Origin: a virus
Lineage: Duplodnaviria > Heunggongvirae > Uroviricota > Caudoviricetes
Strand: one strand, 5' to 3'
DNA length: 44,468 bases
IMG/VR virus record: IMGVR_UViG_2778261246_000004
Span: 1-44,468 of that record
Below are positions 591 to 39,364 of the stretch, piece by piece; within the stretch, counting starts at the first letter, position 1, and each line of letters begins with the position of its first letter. A model generated the notes under the pieces. That model worked only from the letters and a program-made list of their open reading frames with translations, made no database searches and had not been told where the DNA came from. Position numbers and translations under genes: made by a program.

Positions 591-3500
591 TTACTCGATG
601 CGCACGAACAGGCAAAGGAATCCTCTATCACCATATGTAACACGCGTACCAGACAAAGCCTGATAACGCCCCGGGAAATTGTATGCACCGGCTCCGCCAA
701 CATTAACCTGGGGAGATGAAACATACGACCCGGCATCATTGATTGTGCAACTCATCGAGACTGGCCCCAGCCGCGAACCCGGTACGATATCCCCCAGACC
801 AATTTTGATTGCCTTATCGCCTGCTGCTGTTCCCTGATAGACTGCGAGAATAAGAGAGCCAACTGCCGGATATTTGTAATATGAGTACGGGCCGTTGCCT
901 GCCGTCCGGGACAGCAGGAAGGCCAGCGAATCGCCGTCGTAAATGACGGGACTTACTGTTGCATTCCAGTTATTTCCACTCCAGCGGTAAGTCAGGCGAT
1001 GAATACTGTGCTCACCTTCGTAATACTGGTTAAAACACAGCAGCGTTTTGAATTTACGCGTTGTGTCCGACTCATCGTTATCAAAGGGCGACCACATTAC
1101 ATCAATGATGCCGTTAAATTTTGTGGTTCCTGCCAGTAGTGTGGAAGAATCCGCAATACTGACCGCATAACGCCCCGGGGTGACCTCTTTCAGCCACTCA
1201 GCAAAATCAGCCTGCCCATCAAATGCCAGTGCATCGGTGCTGGTAAATGCCTGACCGAATCCATACATGCCGGACAGCGCCAGCCTGCTTGGTGTACGGT
1301 CGCGGATATCGCTCTGGGGGTCCATTGTTGCGGCAGCTTTTAATTCCAGCAACGCACGCATCTTCTCATATGTTCCCAGACCAAGAAGCGACTTCGCTCG
1401 CCCTGTCAGGTCCGTCAGTGTCAGATTCCCGCTTTCGTTGTAATACAAAAGTGAATTTTTTCTCGGCGTAATCTGACCGACTGCTGTTAACACGTCATTA
1501 AGCGGCTGTTTACCTGCCAGTGCTTTAGTGACGGTTGTCGCAAAGTTCGGGTCATTACCCAGCGCCGCTGCCAGCTCGTTCAGCGTGTCGAGGGCTTCCG
1601 GTGATGAGCCAACCAGCGCGGCAAGCAGTTTGCGGACAAACTCCGCATTGGCTATTTCATTACCTGCTGCATCATCTGGTGGTGTTGGCGTGGACGGCGT
1701 TCCGGTCAGTGCCGGGCTGTTCAGTGGCGCGCGGGTTTCAATCAGTGCCCGGAGTGAAGCCTCGTTGACTTTCAGGTTTTCCCAGCCAACCAGATAACCA
1801 TCTCCGGTAGTCCAGTAGCGATTGTAATAAATATGGCCGTTAATACCGTAAAAAATAATGATTTTGGCCACATATGCCGGATTGGGGTTGGTTTGAGGTT
1901 CCGGCCAGATAATTTCAACGGTGCCGCTGAACAGGACTCCGGGAATCACTTTATCTGCGCCATAAACGACATAACGACCCGGTTTTGCTGTTTTTACCCA
2001 GCGGAGAAAATCTGCCTCTGTTTTAAACTCGGTCCTGTCGCCGCTGGAAAATACTTTCCCGAATCCAAACATGCCGGGAATCGCCAGACGGCCTTCGGTG
2101 CGGTCGTAAATATTCTCCTGCGCATCCTTTTGTGCTGCATTGCCCAGTTGTGGCGTCAGATTCGTCCAGGTGACCGGGGCGGAGATATTATCGCCACGAA
2201 CGGTCATGAGTATCCGTCCGTCTTTTCCAAAAAACAGAACCAGCTTTGTTGCTGTCTGGCTGGTTTTGTCGTCCCAGCCATTATCCAGCCAGATAATTTC
2301 TGTTATTCCGGTCGTCTCTTCCGTTTGTGTGGAAAAGGTGTAATACCGTCCCGGGTGCAGGTTATGCGCGCTTTTGGCTATGGTCGCCATATCGCGGGCA
2401 ATAATTGAACTTGCTCCGGCGTCCGTCATTCCGTAACCAAATGCACCTGGCAGCGCAACACGGCCTTCCGTGCTGTCGTAAAGGTCTGTCTGAATGTCCC
2501 TTACCGCTGCGCTTTTCAGCTCAAGCTCATTGCGCATGGTTTCCACTGTGGCCTGTGCCAGCAGTGACCGGGCTTTTTCTGACAGCGGAGACAGTGAAGC
2601 ATTCCCGTCCTGATTAAAGCACAGAAGATTATCCGCCCGTTCTTCCAGATTACTGATTGCGGTTAACACGTCACTGAGTGGTTGTTTACCCGCCAGCGCG
2701 TTCATGATTGTTGTCGCAAACTCCGGGTCATTGCCCAGCGCCGCTGCCAGCTCGTTCAGCGTGTCCAGGGTTTCCGGTGACGAGTCAACCAGTGCAGCAA
2801 GCAGCTTACGGACAAAAGCCGCGTTCGCCATCTCCAGCCCGGTCGCATCGTCCGGTGGAGTTGGTGTGGTTGGCGTGCCGGTGAACGCCGGGCTGTCCAG
2901 CGGCGCTTTTGTTTTCGTCTCGTCCATGACGGTTTTGACGGCCTTCGGTGTGGCTGCCAGTTCTTCGCTGTCGTTATCCGTATCACTACAGAGTTGCACC
3001 AGGCCTTTTTCTGTCGTGGAGGCATTGCTTCCCTTCAGGTCATCAACTATCCGTTGCGCCTCGTCCCTGTGCTGTTTCGCGTTCTGCTCGCTTTTTGCTG
3101 CCGCTTCGGCGCTGGCTTTTGCCTCGCCGGTCAGCGTTGCGGCTTCATCGAGTTTATCGACCGCTTTCTGGACTATCTTATCGGCATCTTTGACCGCCTG
3201 TTCTGCACGGGCGGCATCCTGTTTGGCAGATGACGCCAGTAACGCCACCTGCTTTTTATCTTCGGCAACGTCTTCTGCGTTCTGCTGTACGTTATCTGCC
3301 AGCGTCTGACAGTCTGCCTTTATCTTCTGCGCATCAGCGACATGTTGCCCGGCCTGTTGTTCGCTTTCCGCTGCCGCTTCCGCGCTCTGCTGCGCCTGCG
3401 CCACCATTTCCTCAAAGCGTTTCACTACATCCGGCTTTAAATCGCCTTCATCAAGGGCGGTCAGAAAGTCGTTCAGCGTGCCGGGCTTTGAATCGTCGTA

Positions 3501-28881: not shown

Positions 28882-28956
<75 letters not shown>

Positions 28957-28959
28957 ATA

Positions 28960-29035
<76 letters not shown>

Positions 29036-29037
29036 AC

Positions 29038-29114
29038 TGGACCGCCACCGGGGACTCGAACCTCGCACACTCAACTTAAAGGGTTGACGCTCTTTCCTGA
29101 TGAGCTAGTGGCGG
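29038..29114 (-). tRNA. tRNA-like element B (divergent; anticodon loop CCUUUAA, possibly UUU)
   Basis: Acceptor CCGCCAC/GTGGCGG, U8, A14, GG in D-loop, perfect 5-bp anticodon stem TCAAC/GTTGA, T-loop TTCGAGT, CCA; position 33 is C not U. Confidence 0.45.
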
Positions 29115-29115
29115 T

Positions 29116-29191
29116 TGGTGGCCCTTGCTGGATTTGAACCAGCGACCTGGCGATTATGAGTCGCTCGCTCTCACCACTGAGCTAAAGGGCC
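29116..29191 (-). tRNA. tRNA with anticodon CAU, closest to tRNA-Ile2 (lysidine type, ileX/ileZ-like)
   Basis: GGCCCTTTAGCTCAGTGGT.AGAGC...GACTCATAATCGC...GGTTCAAATCCAGCAAGGGCCACCA; near-identical to E. coli ileX by memory. Confidence 0.8.
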
Positions 29192-31701: not shown

Positions 31702-32757
31702 TCATGCTTTCCACTTCAGGACACCCGAATTTCTCGCGTGCATTAAAAAACGAATCAGCAACAACAGCTGGCTGCCATGTTTTTCTTCAAAATCTTTTAC
31801 CCCGGCGTGCAGTTCGTTATGACATTTACGGCACAGCGGAATAACAAACAAATCGTCAGCCTTTGTTCCCATCCCTCCCAGTCCATGACCAATGATGTGA
31901 TGCGGATCATCTGCCTGATTACCGCACGTCATGCATTTCTGCGTTTTTACCCAGCGCGTGTATACAGGCATCTCTTCCCGTTGTGGTTTCTGGCGCTGGA
32001 GATACTGAGCCGGTGACTCCGGATCAACGGCAATGCTGACCACCGTCTTTTCCTGTGGCGGGTTTTGCTGGTGGGCGTGAGGCAGCGGCGCAAGATTTTT
32101 TGTGCGCTGTTTCAGTATGCTGGTGGTGGTCTGCTCTCCCGGTACGATGTCGCTTTCGCGGTACACCGAGTGGATTTTTTCCGCACGTAACCCCAGAGAA
32201 CGACGTAGTACTGCCTCCGGTAGCGCGTCTGCCACCTGATTGCAGACCGCCCACCAGGATAATTCAGCCAGCGATAATTCCCGCTCCTGTGTGCCATTCA
32301 TTGCGTGACCGATGACGTCAATCATCCATGCTGACAGGTTTTGATGAGCAAGTTGCTCGAGTGATTCGGATGTCTGGTCACGCAGCTGGTTGTCGCAGTG
32401 CCAGCACAACACCATTGCGCCGGTACCATAACGGTGAATGACGGTTTCGCTGTGATGATAATCGCCGTGTGGCCACTGGCAGGATTTAATATGGCGCAAC
32501 AGCCAGTCAGACAATGCACCGGCACCACCAGCAGCACGAATCACCCGTGCGTTACTGAAAAACGGTAGCAATGTTTTGTCTTCCACCAGCTGCTGGCGAA
32601 CGGCAGGAACGATGCCGGACGGCAGACCGCGCATGCTTTTCGGTTCCGGCTCCACCAGCACTCGAGGGTTATGGAATACCTGCATGGATTCACGACCTGG
32701 TTTAAGGAGCACCAGCCCGAGTTCCGGTATCAGAACAGGTCGAAGTAATACCCGCAC
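31702..32757 (-). CDS. DUF968 / YdfU-like phage protein with C-terminal HNH-like zinc-binding motif
   Basis: 351-aa ORF; C-terminal CMTCGN...DPHHI...CRKCHNELH; resemblance to Qin YdfU from memory; start codon uncertain (GTG in track). Confidence 0.6.
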   Translation of the reverse strand: MRVLLRPVLIPELGLVLLKPGRESMQVFHNPRVLVEPEPKSMRGLPSGIVPAVRQQLVEDKTLLPFFSNARVIRAAGGAGALSDWLLRHIKSCQWPHGDYHHSETVIHRYGTGAMVLCWHCDNQLRDQTSESLEQLAHQNLSAWMIDVIGHAMNGTQERELSLAELSWWAVCNQVADALPEAVLRRSLGLRAEKIHSVYRESDIVPGEQTTTSILKQRTKNLAPLPHAHQQNPPQEKTVVSIAVDPESPAQYLQRQKPQREEMPVYTRWVKTQKCMTCGNQADDPHHIIGHGLGGMGTKADDLFVIPLCRKCHNELHAGVKDFEEKHGSQLLLLIRFLMHARNSGVLKWKA

Positions 32758-32758
32758 G

Positions 32759-33031
32759 TTACCTCCAGATGCGTTGCTGGAATATGCGGGACGGACGCGG
32801 TGGGCGTTCGGAATAAGGGAGTCTGACGTAGATTATCCAGTGACGATAATCGAGGGTGAGGGCTTTCCTAAACTCATACCCACGTCTGCGGTAGTTCTGA
32901 ATCAGCCATTCGGCCTGTTCTTCAGTGCAGGGATCGTGCTGATACCAGTCATATTTGAATGCGTGCGAACGCCGCCCGTGCCTGCTGGCACGAACGGTAT
33001 CAGAATTGTGTAATTTGGTCTTGTGCGCCAT
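32759..33031 (-). CDS. Hypothetical nin-region protein
   Basis: ORF 32759-33085 (TTG); likely ATG start at 33031 (MAHKTKLHN). Confidence 0.4.
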   Translation of the reverse strand: MAHKTKLHNSDTVRASRHGRRSHAFKYDWYQHDPCTEEQAEWLIQNYRRRGYEFRKALTLDYRHWIIYVRLPYSERPPRPSRIFQQRIWR

Positions 33032-33099
33032 CTGTTTTCTCTGCTGGCGCAGCAGGTGCCAGTTGTTCAGGCTGGCGTGCAGCAATATTGTCTCTGATT

Positions 33100-33135
33100 T
33101 CTGTTGTCGTCAACAGGCAACGTGCTATCATCGAA
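33100..33135 (+). promoter_or_regulatory. Candidate parDE promoter with overlapping palindromic operator
   Basis: TTGTCG - 16 nt - TATCAT upstream of parD; inverted repeat CTGTTG-TCGT-CAACAG overlaps the -35. Confidence 0.4.
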
Positions 33136-33166
33136 TGGTGTTCTATCCTACTCCGTGAGGTTTACC

Positions 33167-33424
33167 ATGCGTACAACCCAACAATTCAGCATTACATTAA
33201 CTAACGAAATGGCTGACATGGTGCGCGCCCGTGTGGCTTCCGGTGCCTATGCTTCAGAAAGCGAGGTCATTCGTGAAGGACTTCGCGCACTGAATGAGCG
33301 CGATAAAGCAATCGAAGCGTGGTTAACGCATTCAGCCGCTCCCTCTCTTGATTCTATCCGCGAAAATCCAAACAACGGACGCTCCATTTCACAGGTTCGC
33401 GCCGCGATTCGATCCGGGAAGTAA
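33167..33424 (+). CDS. parD: Type II antitoxin, ParD family (ribbon-helix-helix)
   Basis: 85-aa product from ATG 33167 (GAGG RBS); FSITL..EMA..V...V.SG.Y.S.SEVIREGLR.L motif; 6-nt spacing to toxin gene. Confidence 0.7.
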   Translation: MRTTQQFSITLTNEMADMVRARVASGAYASESEVIREGLRALNERDKAIEAWLTHSAAPSLDSIRENPNNGRSISQVRAAIRSGK

Positions 33425-33429
33425 TCTGC

Positions 33430-33729
33430 ATGACATATGAAGTCATCATTACTCCTGAGGCCGAACAACAAATAATCAACCTGCACAGATATATAACGGA
33501 GAAAGCAGGGAACGTCATTGCTGACAATTATGCCAATGCGCTTCTTGATTATCTTGATGGGTTTTCTACATTCCCGCATCGGGGCAATAAACGCGATGAT
33601 ATTCGCCAGGGGATGCGGGTAACTCATTTCCGCCACAGAACGATTATTGCTTTTGCCGTTGATGGCAGAAAAGTCTTTATTGTCGGTATCTATCATGGTG
33701 GGCAAAGTTATGAAACCGATTTCTTATAA
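33430..33729 (+). CDS. parE: Type II toxin, ParE/RelE family
   Basis: 99-aa ORF directly downstream of parD; typical size and pairing. Confidence 0.7.
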   Translation: MTYEVIITPEAEQQIINLHRYITEKAGNVIADNYANALLDYLDGFSTFPHRGNKRDDIRQGMRVTHFRHRTIIAFAVDGRKVFIVGIYHGGQSYETDFL

Positions 33730-33934
33730 ACTTTTACCCACATCATTCCGGTGTTAGAATAAACCGTCCGCCTCCTCTCTTACTGGCGGATTCGTAGGCT
33801 ATATAAATCAAAGATCCCGGCTCATGTTTGTGTCGGGATCTTTTTTTCGGCGATTTATCCCCAGCGGCAAATCGAATACACCACCAGCGCCACCGCCATC
33901 GCAATTCCTACCGTGGTGAATGCCTCAGGCCAGG

Positions 33935-34330
33935 TCATCGATTCACCTCCTGCTCAATATTTTTAAGGTCATTTTCCGCATACAGTATTGCTGTTCTGGC
34001 TGCTCGTAACCGGGCTTTGGCGTTTTTCTCTTCACGTTCAAGTTTTGCCACAGCTTCACGAAGAGCATCCCGCTTTGCATAGAGTGATTTAATCTCAGAC
34101 ACTATGTTTTCACCGTTTCTCGCACGGTCGAGAACAAGCTCGAACGGATCTAAAGCCAATCCGCATCGGTTACAGGTAATCGTACGATTCACTTCTGAAA
34201 TTGTTGTACGGATATGCTGACAGCATTTTTGCTCGCCGCTTTTTCTGTCGGCTATCACAACGTTGAGGAGTCCTTCCTCCTCTGATTTTGGCTGTACCAG
34301 AGTGATAACATTGTCGACTTCATTTTTCAT
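33935..34330 (-). CDS. Zinc-finger plus coiled-coil protein (paralog A)
   Basis: 131 aa; C..H...C..C motif then coiled-coil tail ...EREEKNAKARLRAARTA; paralogous to the 34943-35299 product. Confidence 0.5.
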   Translation of the reverse strand: MKNEVDNVITLVQPKSEEEGLLNVVIADRKSGEQKCCQHIRTTISEVNRTITCNRCGLALDPFELVLDRARNGENIVSEIKSLYAKRDALREAVAKLEREEKNAKARLRAARTAILYAENDLKNIEQEVNR

Positions 34331-34845
34331 CAGCTCACCTCCTGCGGCGGTTCCGGTAGCGGCATCCAGTCTGTTACATTGCGGCTCTGTGTTTCAAAAA
34401 ATTCATCACCATTGCGGACAATATCGAAAAACTCACCGTCTCGATATTGCGCATAAAGAACGAATGCGCCATCACATAAAATAATTACGTGCTGACCGTC
34501 CACTGGCATCCGCTCACTACAGCTTATCCAACCATCCGGAATTACCGGCGCTGATGGCGCTGCGTAAAGTGGTGTTATTTCTGCCCGAAAGTCACCTATT
34601 TCATGCAGCCGCACCCACTGTTCAGCTTCTGCTTTGTCAGAATACATAGCGGTGAACGTATTATATTCATGGTCAATTTGCGTGAAGGTTGCCTTCCAGG
34701 CCACCGGCTCTGCTTCCAGCGATGCCAGTGCAATTTTGAATAACTCACCATCTACCTGTGCCATCCCTGAATTTGGGTGGCATTTCACAATTGCTATTTT
34801 TAATTTAGCTTCTTCGATTAATTGCTCTTTGGTTAATTCAGTCAT
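34330..34845 (-). CDS. DUF551-like phage protein
   Basis: 171 aa; C-terminal W.S..E..P...........W.PLPEPP motif typical of DUF551 (from memory). Confidence 0.55.
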   Translation of the reverse strand: MTELTKEQLIEEAKLKIAIVKCHPNSGMAQVDGELFKIALASLEAEPVAWKATFTQIDHEYNTFTAMYSDKAEAEQWVRLHEIGDFRAEITPLYAAPSAPVIPDGWISCSERMPVDGQHVIILCDGAFVLYAQYRDGEFFDIVRNGDEFFETQSRNVTDWMPLPEPPQEVS

Positions 34846-39311: not shown

Positions 39312-39364
39312 TTTCTGGTGACGTTTGGCGGTATCAGTTTTACTCCGTGACTGCTCTGCCGCCC
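39312..39364 (+). ncRNA. dicF: DicF small regulatory RNA
   Basis: UUUCUGGUGACGUUUGGCGGUAUCAGUUUUACUCCGUGACUGCUCUGCCGCCC plus U5 matches remembered E. coli DicF; lies between ydfC-like and dicB as in Qin. Confidence 0.8.

Follow-up and report, generated by a model that had tools for sequence, protein, structure and literature searches.

We analyzed a 44,468-nucleotide stretch of viral DNA (IMG/VR record IMGVR_UViG_2778261246_000004), hereafter called the window. On its plus strand are two adjacent genes: parD (33167-33424, with an ATG at 33167 and a stop codon ending at 33424), which encodes an 85-aa ribbon-helix-helix (RHH) antitoxin, and parE (33430-33729, with an ATG at 33430 and a stop codon at 33727-33729), which encodes a 99-aa ParE-type toxin. 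The gap between the two genes is 5 nt (33425-33429), and not 6 nt as was given in a preliminary description of this DNA. Every flanking gene is on the minus strand, opposite to parD and parE. The genes to the left of the pair are a 90/108-aa ORF (phrog_1212), DUF968, RusA and Q, and those to the right are a 131-aa ORF (phrog_1621), DUF551, a 137-aa ORF, DUF977 and a replisome organizer.

Matching E. coli chromosomes are 100% identical over a 1-kb query, and the chromosome of CV839-06 is 99.9% identical over positions 32700-34400. According to the RefSeq annotation, the prophage is inserted next to potC and has the order int-xis-exo...dicB...cI-cro-ydaT-replication-nin-Q-tRNAs-lysis-terminase-head-tail. 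The parDE genes are found between the replication genes and DUF968-RusA-Q. Given the lambdoid layout in the RefSeq chromosomes, their position is therefore within the nin section of the early-right operon, to which they are oppositely oriented.

Identity of the two proteins

ParD belongs to the families PF03693 in Pfam (32.1 bits, with a cut-off of 21) and TIGR02606 in NCBIfam (53.8 bits, with a cut-off of 46.2). It matches phrog_6494 ('antitoxin') end to end with an E-value of 1.7e-56, and is identical to WP_001260977.1, which PGAP names a ParD family antitoxin. Residues 3-51 align to the RHH domains of 3KXE, 7YCV, 7B22, 6X0A, 8C24 and 5CEG (E-values of 4e-4 to 6e-3), and the PDB sequence matches of this protein consist of ParD antitoxins only. 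Its N-terminal DNA-reading strand (MRTTQQFSITLpNEMA) is nearly invariant from the window to Nostoc.

ParE, which begins with MTYEVIIT, scores 40.9 bits against Pfam family PF05016 (with a cut-off of 23) and covers 89 of the 89 profile positions. It matches phrog_5232 ('toxin') end to end with an E-value of 3.4e-43, did not match any NCBIfam model, and is identical to WP_000220600.1, which PGAP names a RelE/ParE family toxin. The preliminary description had proposed an HMM search as a check on its reading of the genes as an 85-aa RHH antitoxin and a 99-aa ParE/RelE-like toxin. Both proteins have family matches above the cut-offs, and the reading is borne out by PF03693, TIGR02606, PF05016 and the RefSeq names. 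The pair is already known, as it is named in RefSeq and in PHROGs.

When we searched the PDB with a profile of 16 ParE homologues, only ParE-type chains were matched, and every significant PDB sequence match is a ParE-type chain that is paired with a ParD. An AlphaFold2 model of ParE, built on a 16-sequence alignment, has a pLDDT of 82.8 and a pTM of 0.75. Its elements have the order beta-alpha-alpha-beta-beta-beta, with strands at residues 4-7, 61-67, 71-78 and 81-89, and helices at 9-26 and 28-46. In a Foldseek comparison of this model to the PDB, ranks 1-23 are all ParE-type toxins (TM 0.65-0.74), including those of P. aeruginosa and Mesorhizobium, PfiT, M. tuberculosis ParE1/2, PrpT, O157 ParE2, V. 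cholerae ParE2 and Caulobacter ParE1. The sequence identity of ParE to the solved structural matches is 12-24%. RNase-type toxins occur from rank 24 on, and entries of the RelE, YoeB, YafQ and HigB types have TM values of 0.37-0.59. The model shows a predicted fold that is ParE-like, not RelE-like. At the C-terminus of ParE, the sequence YHGGQSY includes a His and a Tyr, so that RelE catalytic residues are not evidently lacking.

Based on what is known of the family, we infer that the target of ParE is DNA gyrase. The toxin could instead be a RelE-like ribosome-dependent mRNA endonuclease, or it could combine the ParE fold with another target, as has been proposed for PrpT (7YCS) and PfiT (9W3A), whose main action may not be on gyrase. 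Both the structure and the sequence searches with ParE place these two proteins among the close matches, and PF05016 as well as the PGAP name span the whole RelE/ParE superfamily. However, the significant PDB sequence matches are without exception ParE-type chains with ParD partners, RNase-type toxins rank under all of the ParE matches with clearly lower TM values, and the partner of the toxin is a TIGR02606 ParD antitoxin. A toxin of either of these other kinds is therefore unlikely.

Signals for transcription and translation

A candidate promoter for parDE is located at 33104-33131 on the plus strand. It comprises the -35 hexamer TTGTCG (33104-33109), a 16-nt spacer and the extended -10 element TGcTATCAT (33123-33131), in which TATCAT (33126-33131) is preceded by TG. 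The hexamers match the sigma-70 consensus at 9 of 12 positions. The promoter was called by consensus match only, and promoter-like matches are not in excess in the region (3 found versus 1.8 ± 1.3 expected in shuffled sequences). An inverted repeat, CTGTTG-TCGT-CAACAG (33101-33116), overlaps the -35-like TTGTCG; its arms are at 33101-33106 and 33111-33116, separated by the spacer TCGT. A Shine-Dalgarno-like GTGAGG (33155-33160, plus strand) is positioned 6 nt 5′ of the parD ATG and is kept in enterobacterial variants.

Downstream of parE, we found a predicted intrinsic terminator on the plus strand (33813-33847), consisting of the stem GATCCCGGC / GTCGGGATC followed by seven T residues. Its predicted folding energy is -20.7 kcal/mol (z -4.7), and 0 of 200 shuffled sequences were as stable. 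A simple pattern scan overlooked this terminator because of its loop size and gave only a weak hairpin within parE; the terminator was found by folding. The folding energy of the minus strand is -17.3 kcal/mol (z -3.95). An AAA run lies 5′ of the plus-strand stem, so the terminator may also be active in the minus-strand direction. With one promoter match and one terminator, parD and parE are presumably co-transcribed.

A conserved upstream box as candidate operator

Homologous loci have a palindrome, TAGGATTnAATCCTA, upstream of parD. It was scored over 14 specified bases and compared to a background of random 80-nt segments from the same loci. In 16 of 17 distant loci, a box with at most 2 mismatches occurs 31-52 nt upstream of parD, and none of the random 80-nt segments contained a match to TAGGATTnAATCCTA at this level. 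The Nostoc box, TATGATTtAATCATA, has a symmetric double change (TATGATT/AATCATA) that is compensatory. The box TAGTGTTCAATCCTA is common to Sinorhizobium and Yersinia.

The window has a weakened homologue of this palindrome, TGGTGTTCTATCCTA, at 33136-33150, about 30 bases downstream of the inverted repeat. It has 4 mismatches in the 14 positions, a level that is reached by 0.8% of the background segments. The left half of the box, TGGTGTT, is poor; many other E. coli copies have TAGTGTT at this place. If the transcription start is set by the TATCAT -10 element, it would be near 33138, and the box would be at about -3 to +12. The footprinted operator of V. cholerae ParDE2 extends from -21 to +13 (PMC10776004).

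Given the conserved box and the near-invariant DNA-reading strand of ParD, it is likely that ParD has a binding site at 33136-33150. Phylogenetic footprinting marks this position as the most likely candidate for the site. The degenerate state of the box in the window could mean that repression is weak or that it involves other contacts.

The left half-site also serves as the -10 element in distant relatives, where a -35 element lies 17 nt upstream. We considered whether the left half of the box (TGGTGT) might likewise be the -10 element in the window, and rejected this idea: unlike the distant relatives, the enterobacterial clade has no -35 element at a distance of 16-18 nt upstream.

The control region also contains a direct repeat, CTATCAT / CTATCCT, that we considered as additional ParD half-sites. 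Its copies are 18 bp apart, and are out of helical phase.

The inverted repeat and a divergent promoter

The preliminary description had proposed that the inverted repeat CTGTTG-TCGT-CAACAG is the operator of the system. The repeat and its overlap with the -35 hexamer are real, but the proposed role in operator binding is not supported. In favor of this role, the repeat is a genuine palindrome when read as a 16-mer, in which 7 of 8 positions pair, and such palindromes are uncommon in the window (about 0.03 per 100 nt). Its half-site centers are 10 bp apart, a spacing that would suit two adjacent RHH dimers, as in Arc and CopG. Moreover, its core, TGTTGTCGTCAAC, is unchanged in 20 upstream variants from enterobacteria.

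However, repeats of this class are common when judged by arms and spacer. With arms of at least 6 and a spacer of at most 8, there are 132 in the window, or about 0.30 per 100 nt, and the chance of finding one in any 100 nt is roughly 26%. The arms CTGTTG/CAACAG do not resemble the TAGGATT/AATCCTA half-sites that are found upstream of homologues with the same DNA-reading strand. The outer pair of the repeat varies without compensation, giving GTGTTG..CAACAA in ArgO145 and CTGTTG..CAACTG in L074, and Yersinia has lost the left arm altogether, yet retains the TAGTGTTCAATCCTA box. Finally, in related phages the center and left arm of the repeat coincide with the -35 element and spacer of a second, divergent promoter, and the box at 33136-33150 is a better candidate.

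This second promoter is of the isrK type. In Salmonella, Yersinia, ArgO145 and E. coli L074, an isrK sRNA, a C4 antisense RNA and an antirepressor gene are encoded on the minus strand immediately to the left of the cassette that carries parDE. At these four parDE-linked loci, Rfam scores are 53-81 bits for isrK (RF01394) and 67-75 bits for the C4 antisense RNA (RF01695). All four have TTGACG at -36 and TATATT at -12 relative to the 5′ end of isrK, as given by the Rfam match. The hexamer TTGACG is the complement of the center and right arm of the palindrome. In Gifsy-1, isrK-orf45-anrP is transcribed from PisrK (PMC4825925). The arrangement TTGAC[AG]-18-TATATT also precedes isrK in Gifsy-1, PhiR12_5 and phage 2851, where parDE is absent at isrK. 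The Gifsy-1 promoter additionally has part of the spacer (CAAACAG versus ACAACAG); PhiR12_5 and phage 2851 lack this spacer motif, and have only the two hexamers, 18 nt apart, in common.

In the window, homology to the related cassettes stops at 33084, leaving a remnant of the isrK-type promoter (33084-33113, minus strand). The remnant is made up of the -35 element TTGACG (33113->33108), an 18-nt spacer and the -10 element AATATT (33089->33084), and it faces the 90-aa ORF. There is no Rfam match to isrK or C4 in the window.

It is more likely that the repeat at 33101-33116 largely corresponds to the overlapping -35 elements of two divergent promoters, TTGTCG rightward and TTGACG leftward. The core TGTTGTCGTCAAC would then be invariant because the two hexamers overlap there, although its invariance in close copies is compatible with a protein-binding role as well. 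We consider it quite unlikely that the repeat is an operator for ParD or ParD-ParE.

A more far-reaching idea is that the control region of about 80 bp is a switch shared by parDE and the isrK-C4-antirepressor genes, and not a plain toxin-antitoxin promoter. We regard this as highly unlikely. As part of the same idea, and with equally little probability, the ancestral form in Salmonella, Yersinia, ArgO145 and some E. coli prophages would fire divergently from the overlapping -35 elements. If this were true, a bound factor or competition for RNA polymerase would couple expression of the toxin-antitoxin genes to the antirepressor pathway of induction, and the leftward remnant in the window would feed the genes of the 90-aa ORF, DUF968, RusA and Q. 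Regardless, a palindrome over a -35 element should not be assumed to be a toxin-antitoxin operator when a divergent promoter is present.

Mobility, distribution and selection

A cassette of about 0.86 kb (33084-33940) comprises parD and parE along with their control region and terminator, as well as a small ORF on the minus strand. The Stx2a phage ArgO145 is 97.4% identical to the window over 33084-33940 only, and the flanks are unrelated. In ArgO145, the cassette occurs in the early-left region, between antirepressor and ea22-like genes, and is opposite to its neighbors. Comparison of the two phages thus shows that the cassette is mobile between phage contexts. The preliminary description had placed the pair on the strand opposite to the flanking early genes and had called it cargo, which agrees with the minus-strand flanks and with the different location of the same cassette in ArgO145. 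Among 79 loci in viral contigs, recurrent break points are found at 33940 and at the parE stop codon (33727-33729).

Both ORFs are intact and have the same spacing in 74 of these 79 copies. Both genes are under purifying selection, as measured against the allele that differs most: parD has a pN/pS of 0.07, and parE has one of 0.15. Given its own terminator, its mobility and this selection, the cassette has the anatomy of a moron.

The parE gene is present in 328 of 5,426 complete E. coli genomes (about 6%), always on the chromosome, and parD is present in 365. Many Stx2a phages have an orphan parD without parE. It is a remote possibility that this orphan is an anti-addiction or anti-toxin gene directed against the ParE of a resident prophage.

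A word-index search found 34 close relatives, and an exhaustive profile search revealed a large family, with 2,432 cluster representatives (E ≤ 1e-3), which carry no genomic context. In 16 of 17 genome loci, a ParD homologue is encoded directly upstream of the ParE homologue. Among the genera represented are Salmonella, Yersinia, Pantoea, Paraburkholderia, Polynucleobacter, Dyella and Desulfovibrio. IncP-1 (kluAB), Sinorhizobium and Nostoc plasmids share this gene order, giving 19 loci in other genera and on plasmids. The order is thus conserved across Proteobacteria and Cyanobacteria. Since the family HMMs, the synteny across phyla and the purifying selection agree, the gene pair is far beyond chance.

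We also asked whether the pair might be a decaying, non-functional remnant. In favor of decay, the window has a degenerate version of the operator-like box, and the orphan parD genes in Stx2a phages indicate that the module can be dismantled. By contrast, neither ORF is truncated compared to its homologues, the great majority of copies are intact and under the selection just noted, and the module has a promoter, a Shine-Dalgarno sequence and a terminator. Decay is therefore extremely unlikely.

Comparison to known systems

The closest non-prophage relatives that we found are KluA and KluB of IncP-1 plasmids, which are annotated as a ParD-family antitoxin and a RelE-ParE-family toxin. The KluAB toxin is about 46-47% identical to ParE over 97% of its length, and the antitoxins are about 56% identical. 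The gene order is the same, although the kluAB ORFs overlap by 4 nt, whereas the window genes are spaced, and the KluAB antitoxin is about 10 residues longer than ParD at its C-terminus. The box upstream of kluAB, ATAGGATTGAATCCTAT, is a perfect version of the family palindrome, in contrast to the degenerate box in the window, and the promoter in the window is about 10 bp further upstream than that of kluAB. KluAB is plasmid-borne, and beside it is a sequence that we take to be the KorB operator. We found no usable paper on the window's gene pair, on the ArgO145 toxin-antitoxin or on the function of KluA/KluB.

Structures have been solved for ParDE systems of Caulobacter (ParDE1; 3KXE), V. cholerae (ParDE2; 7R5A), P. 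aeruginosa (6XRW), Mesorhizobium (ParDE3; 5CEG, 6X0A) and M. tuberculosis (ParDE1/2; 8C24, 8C26). Like the window pair, these have an RHH antitoxin encoded upstream of a toxin with the ParE fold. Their toxins resemble our model with TM values of 0.65-0.74, but only 12-24% identity, and none of these systems is phage-borne, unlike the window pair. The V. cholerae ParDE2 operator is in the -10/+1 region, as is the candidate operator here, but its motif consists of GGTA repeats and not TAGGATT/AATCCTA.

The PaaR2-PaaA2-ParE2 system, from an E. coli O157:H7 prophage, has a toxin with the ParE fold, and its structures 5CW7 and 5CZF match our model with TM values of about 0.70-0.72. This system has three components, in which the non-RHH antitoxin PaaA2 is accompanied by the separate regulator PaaR2. 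In the window pair, the RHH protein ParD alone would be expected to serve as both antitoxin and regulator.

ParESO-CopASO is likewise prophage-borne. It occurs in the Shewanella oneidensis prophage CP4So, and consists of a ParE-family toxin and an RHH-type (CopG-like) antitoxin. This system is reported to maintain the excised CP4So prophage (PMC8706911), and it is the best functional analogy for the window pair. However, its antitoxin belongs to a different family, its toxin (7ETR) is a weak structural match (E-value of 0.06), and its host and phage type are unrelated.

ParDE-I (YacA/YacB), found on IncI/IncF plasmids, is an enterobacterial stabilization module of the ParDE type with an RHH antitoxin, for which toxicity and plasmid maintenance were demonstrated (PMC6614396). 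It represents a different subfamily, with an antitoxin in COG3905. We rejected an identity of the window pair with ParDE-I, because the plasmid matches are KluAB-like or come from rhizobial or other non-enteric plasmids, with less than 50% identity and no IncI/IncF match.

Proposed mechanism and role

Taken as a whole, the locus is probably a complete, self-contained type II ParD-ParE operon, a moron that an E. coli lambdoid prophage carries in its nin region and that serves as an autoregulated module for addiction or stabilization. The parDE genes would be transcribed from their own promoter, against the early-right direction, and transcription would end at their own intrinsic terminator. ParD dimers would bind DNA by their N-terminal ribbon and neutralize ParE by their C-terminal tail. 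ParD, alone or with ParE, would repress the operon, with the TAGGATTnAATCCTA-type box (33136-33150) near the transcription start as the probable site, and not the palindrome at the -35 element.

In the lysogen, the early-right promoter would be off, and parDE would be expressed from its own promoter, subject to repression by ParD with ParE at the box. If the cassette or prophage were lost, or if ParD synthesis stopped, labile ParD would no longer be made, and the resulting free ParE would be expected to poison DNA gyrase. Induction of the prophage could, speculatively, also lower the transcription of parDE, since early-right transcription converges on these genes.

The preliminary description had proposed an addiction or defense module, which is a plausible reading. 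By analogy to other systems, the module most likely acts in addiction, or in stabilization of the prophage or cassette. This is the best-supported role because ParDE-I stabilizes plasmids, because ParESO-CopASO is reported to maintain its prophage, and because the closest relatives occur in IncP-1 backbones.

A lysogen might instead use the pair mainly against other phages, by abortive infection or superinfection exclusion. Several type II toxin-antitoxin systems are known phage-defense systems, and the pair is a prophage moron that would be expressed independently of the lytic program and convergently to early-right transcription. On the other hand, we know of no ParDE system that defends against phage. 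A search of PADLOC-DB v2 with ParD and ParE matched no family at E ≤ 0.1, such that neither protein has a defense model even at this permissive value, and we rejected the identification of the pair as a listed defense system on this basis. Close plasmid relatives are located in IncP-1 backbones, where stabilization is expected. The closest characterized prophage ParE system, ParESO-CopASO, is reported to maintain its prophage after excision. Defense as the main role would have a small, but appreciable, chance of being correct, and we prefer addiction.

Significance

The window pair is one of many ParDE modules, and its significance extends little beyond correct annotation. Two points are mildly new. 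The KluAB-like subfamily has a clearly conserved candidate operator, TAGGATTnAATCCTA, and in related phages, the cassette is tightly linked to the isrK-C4-antirepressor promoter. Related Stx and Salmonella phages carry the cassette beside the isrK-C4-antirepressor induction switch, which may be relevant to the induction of Stx phages.

A small ORF and a terminator beside parE

Beyond parE, on the minus strand, lies an unannotated ORF (33855-33938) that encodes a hydrophobic peptide of 27 amino acids, MTWPEAFTTVGIAMAVALVVYSICRWG. Its start overlaps the stop codon of the preceding 131-aa ORF in a shared ATGA. The reading frame is open in all 19 of the sequence variants found at related loci, the changes among them are for the most part synonymous, and the ORF is kept even at loci with replaced DNA in the interval up to parE. 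It matched no PHROG family. It is probably a genuine gene for a small membrane protein.

Between this ORF and parE is the parDE terminator, a hairpin at 33813-33847. Because the stem is preceded by AAA and followed by T7, and its minus-strand fold is also good (-17.3 kcal/mol, z -3.95), the terminator may be bidirectional. On the minus strand, it may attenuate early-right read-through past the 27-aa ORF.

The 131-aa ORF and the 171-aa DUF551 ORF are both intact in the window (33935-34845, minus strand). In the RefSeq annotations of E. coli CV839-06 and RM10740, the same place holds a pseudogene with a frameshift and a DUF551 gene that is only partial. CV839-06 is 99.9% identical to the window over 32700-34400, a 1-nt indel apart.

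Neighbours of the cassette

In related phages, the parDE cassette stands back to back with the isrK sRNA, a C4 antisense RNA of the P1/P7 immI type and an antirepressor gene. This block is on the minus strand in four related loci: L083 from Salmonella enterica (1962-2148), L074 from E. coli (2462-2661), L094 (1958-2143) and L002 (4059-4241). The window has none of the three elements; only a promoter remnant (33113->33084) is left, which now faces the 90-aa ORF, DUF968, RusA and Q.

The Salmonella prophage (L083) also has a match to the sok antitoxin RNA roughly 1 kb from the cassette (1089-1239, minus strand; RF01794, 104.8 bits), which implies a predicted hok/sok type I toxin-antitoxin locus there. 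Sok is absent from the window.

Elsewhere in the window, the DicF antisense sRNA occurs at 39313-39364 on the plus strand (Rfam RF00039, 76.7 bits), in a prophage segment where the RefSeq annotation of a related genome has dicB and ydfD. Downstream of Q there are four tRNA genes in tandem (28885-29191, minus strand). Matching RefSeq genomes annotate them as Gly, Thr, Lys and Ile, and such a cluster is typical of lambdoid or Stx-phages.

parD without parE

Stx2a phage Stx2a_JNE122398 (L103, 1500-2600) carries an orphan parD encoding an 85-aa ParD. The DNA is ~86% identical, the control region is the same and isrK adjoins it, but parE is missing. Next come a 93-aa lipoprotein-like ORF and a 101-aa HTH protein, which by eye resembles HigA. 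Up to about 61 phage records, mainly of Stx2a phages, have an orphan parD. Among complete E. coli genomes, parD is present in 365 versus 328 for parE, and the number of E. coli genomes with the orphan gene is 37. An anti-addiction or anti-toxin function is possible for it.
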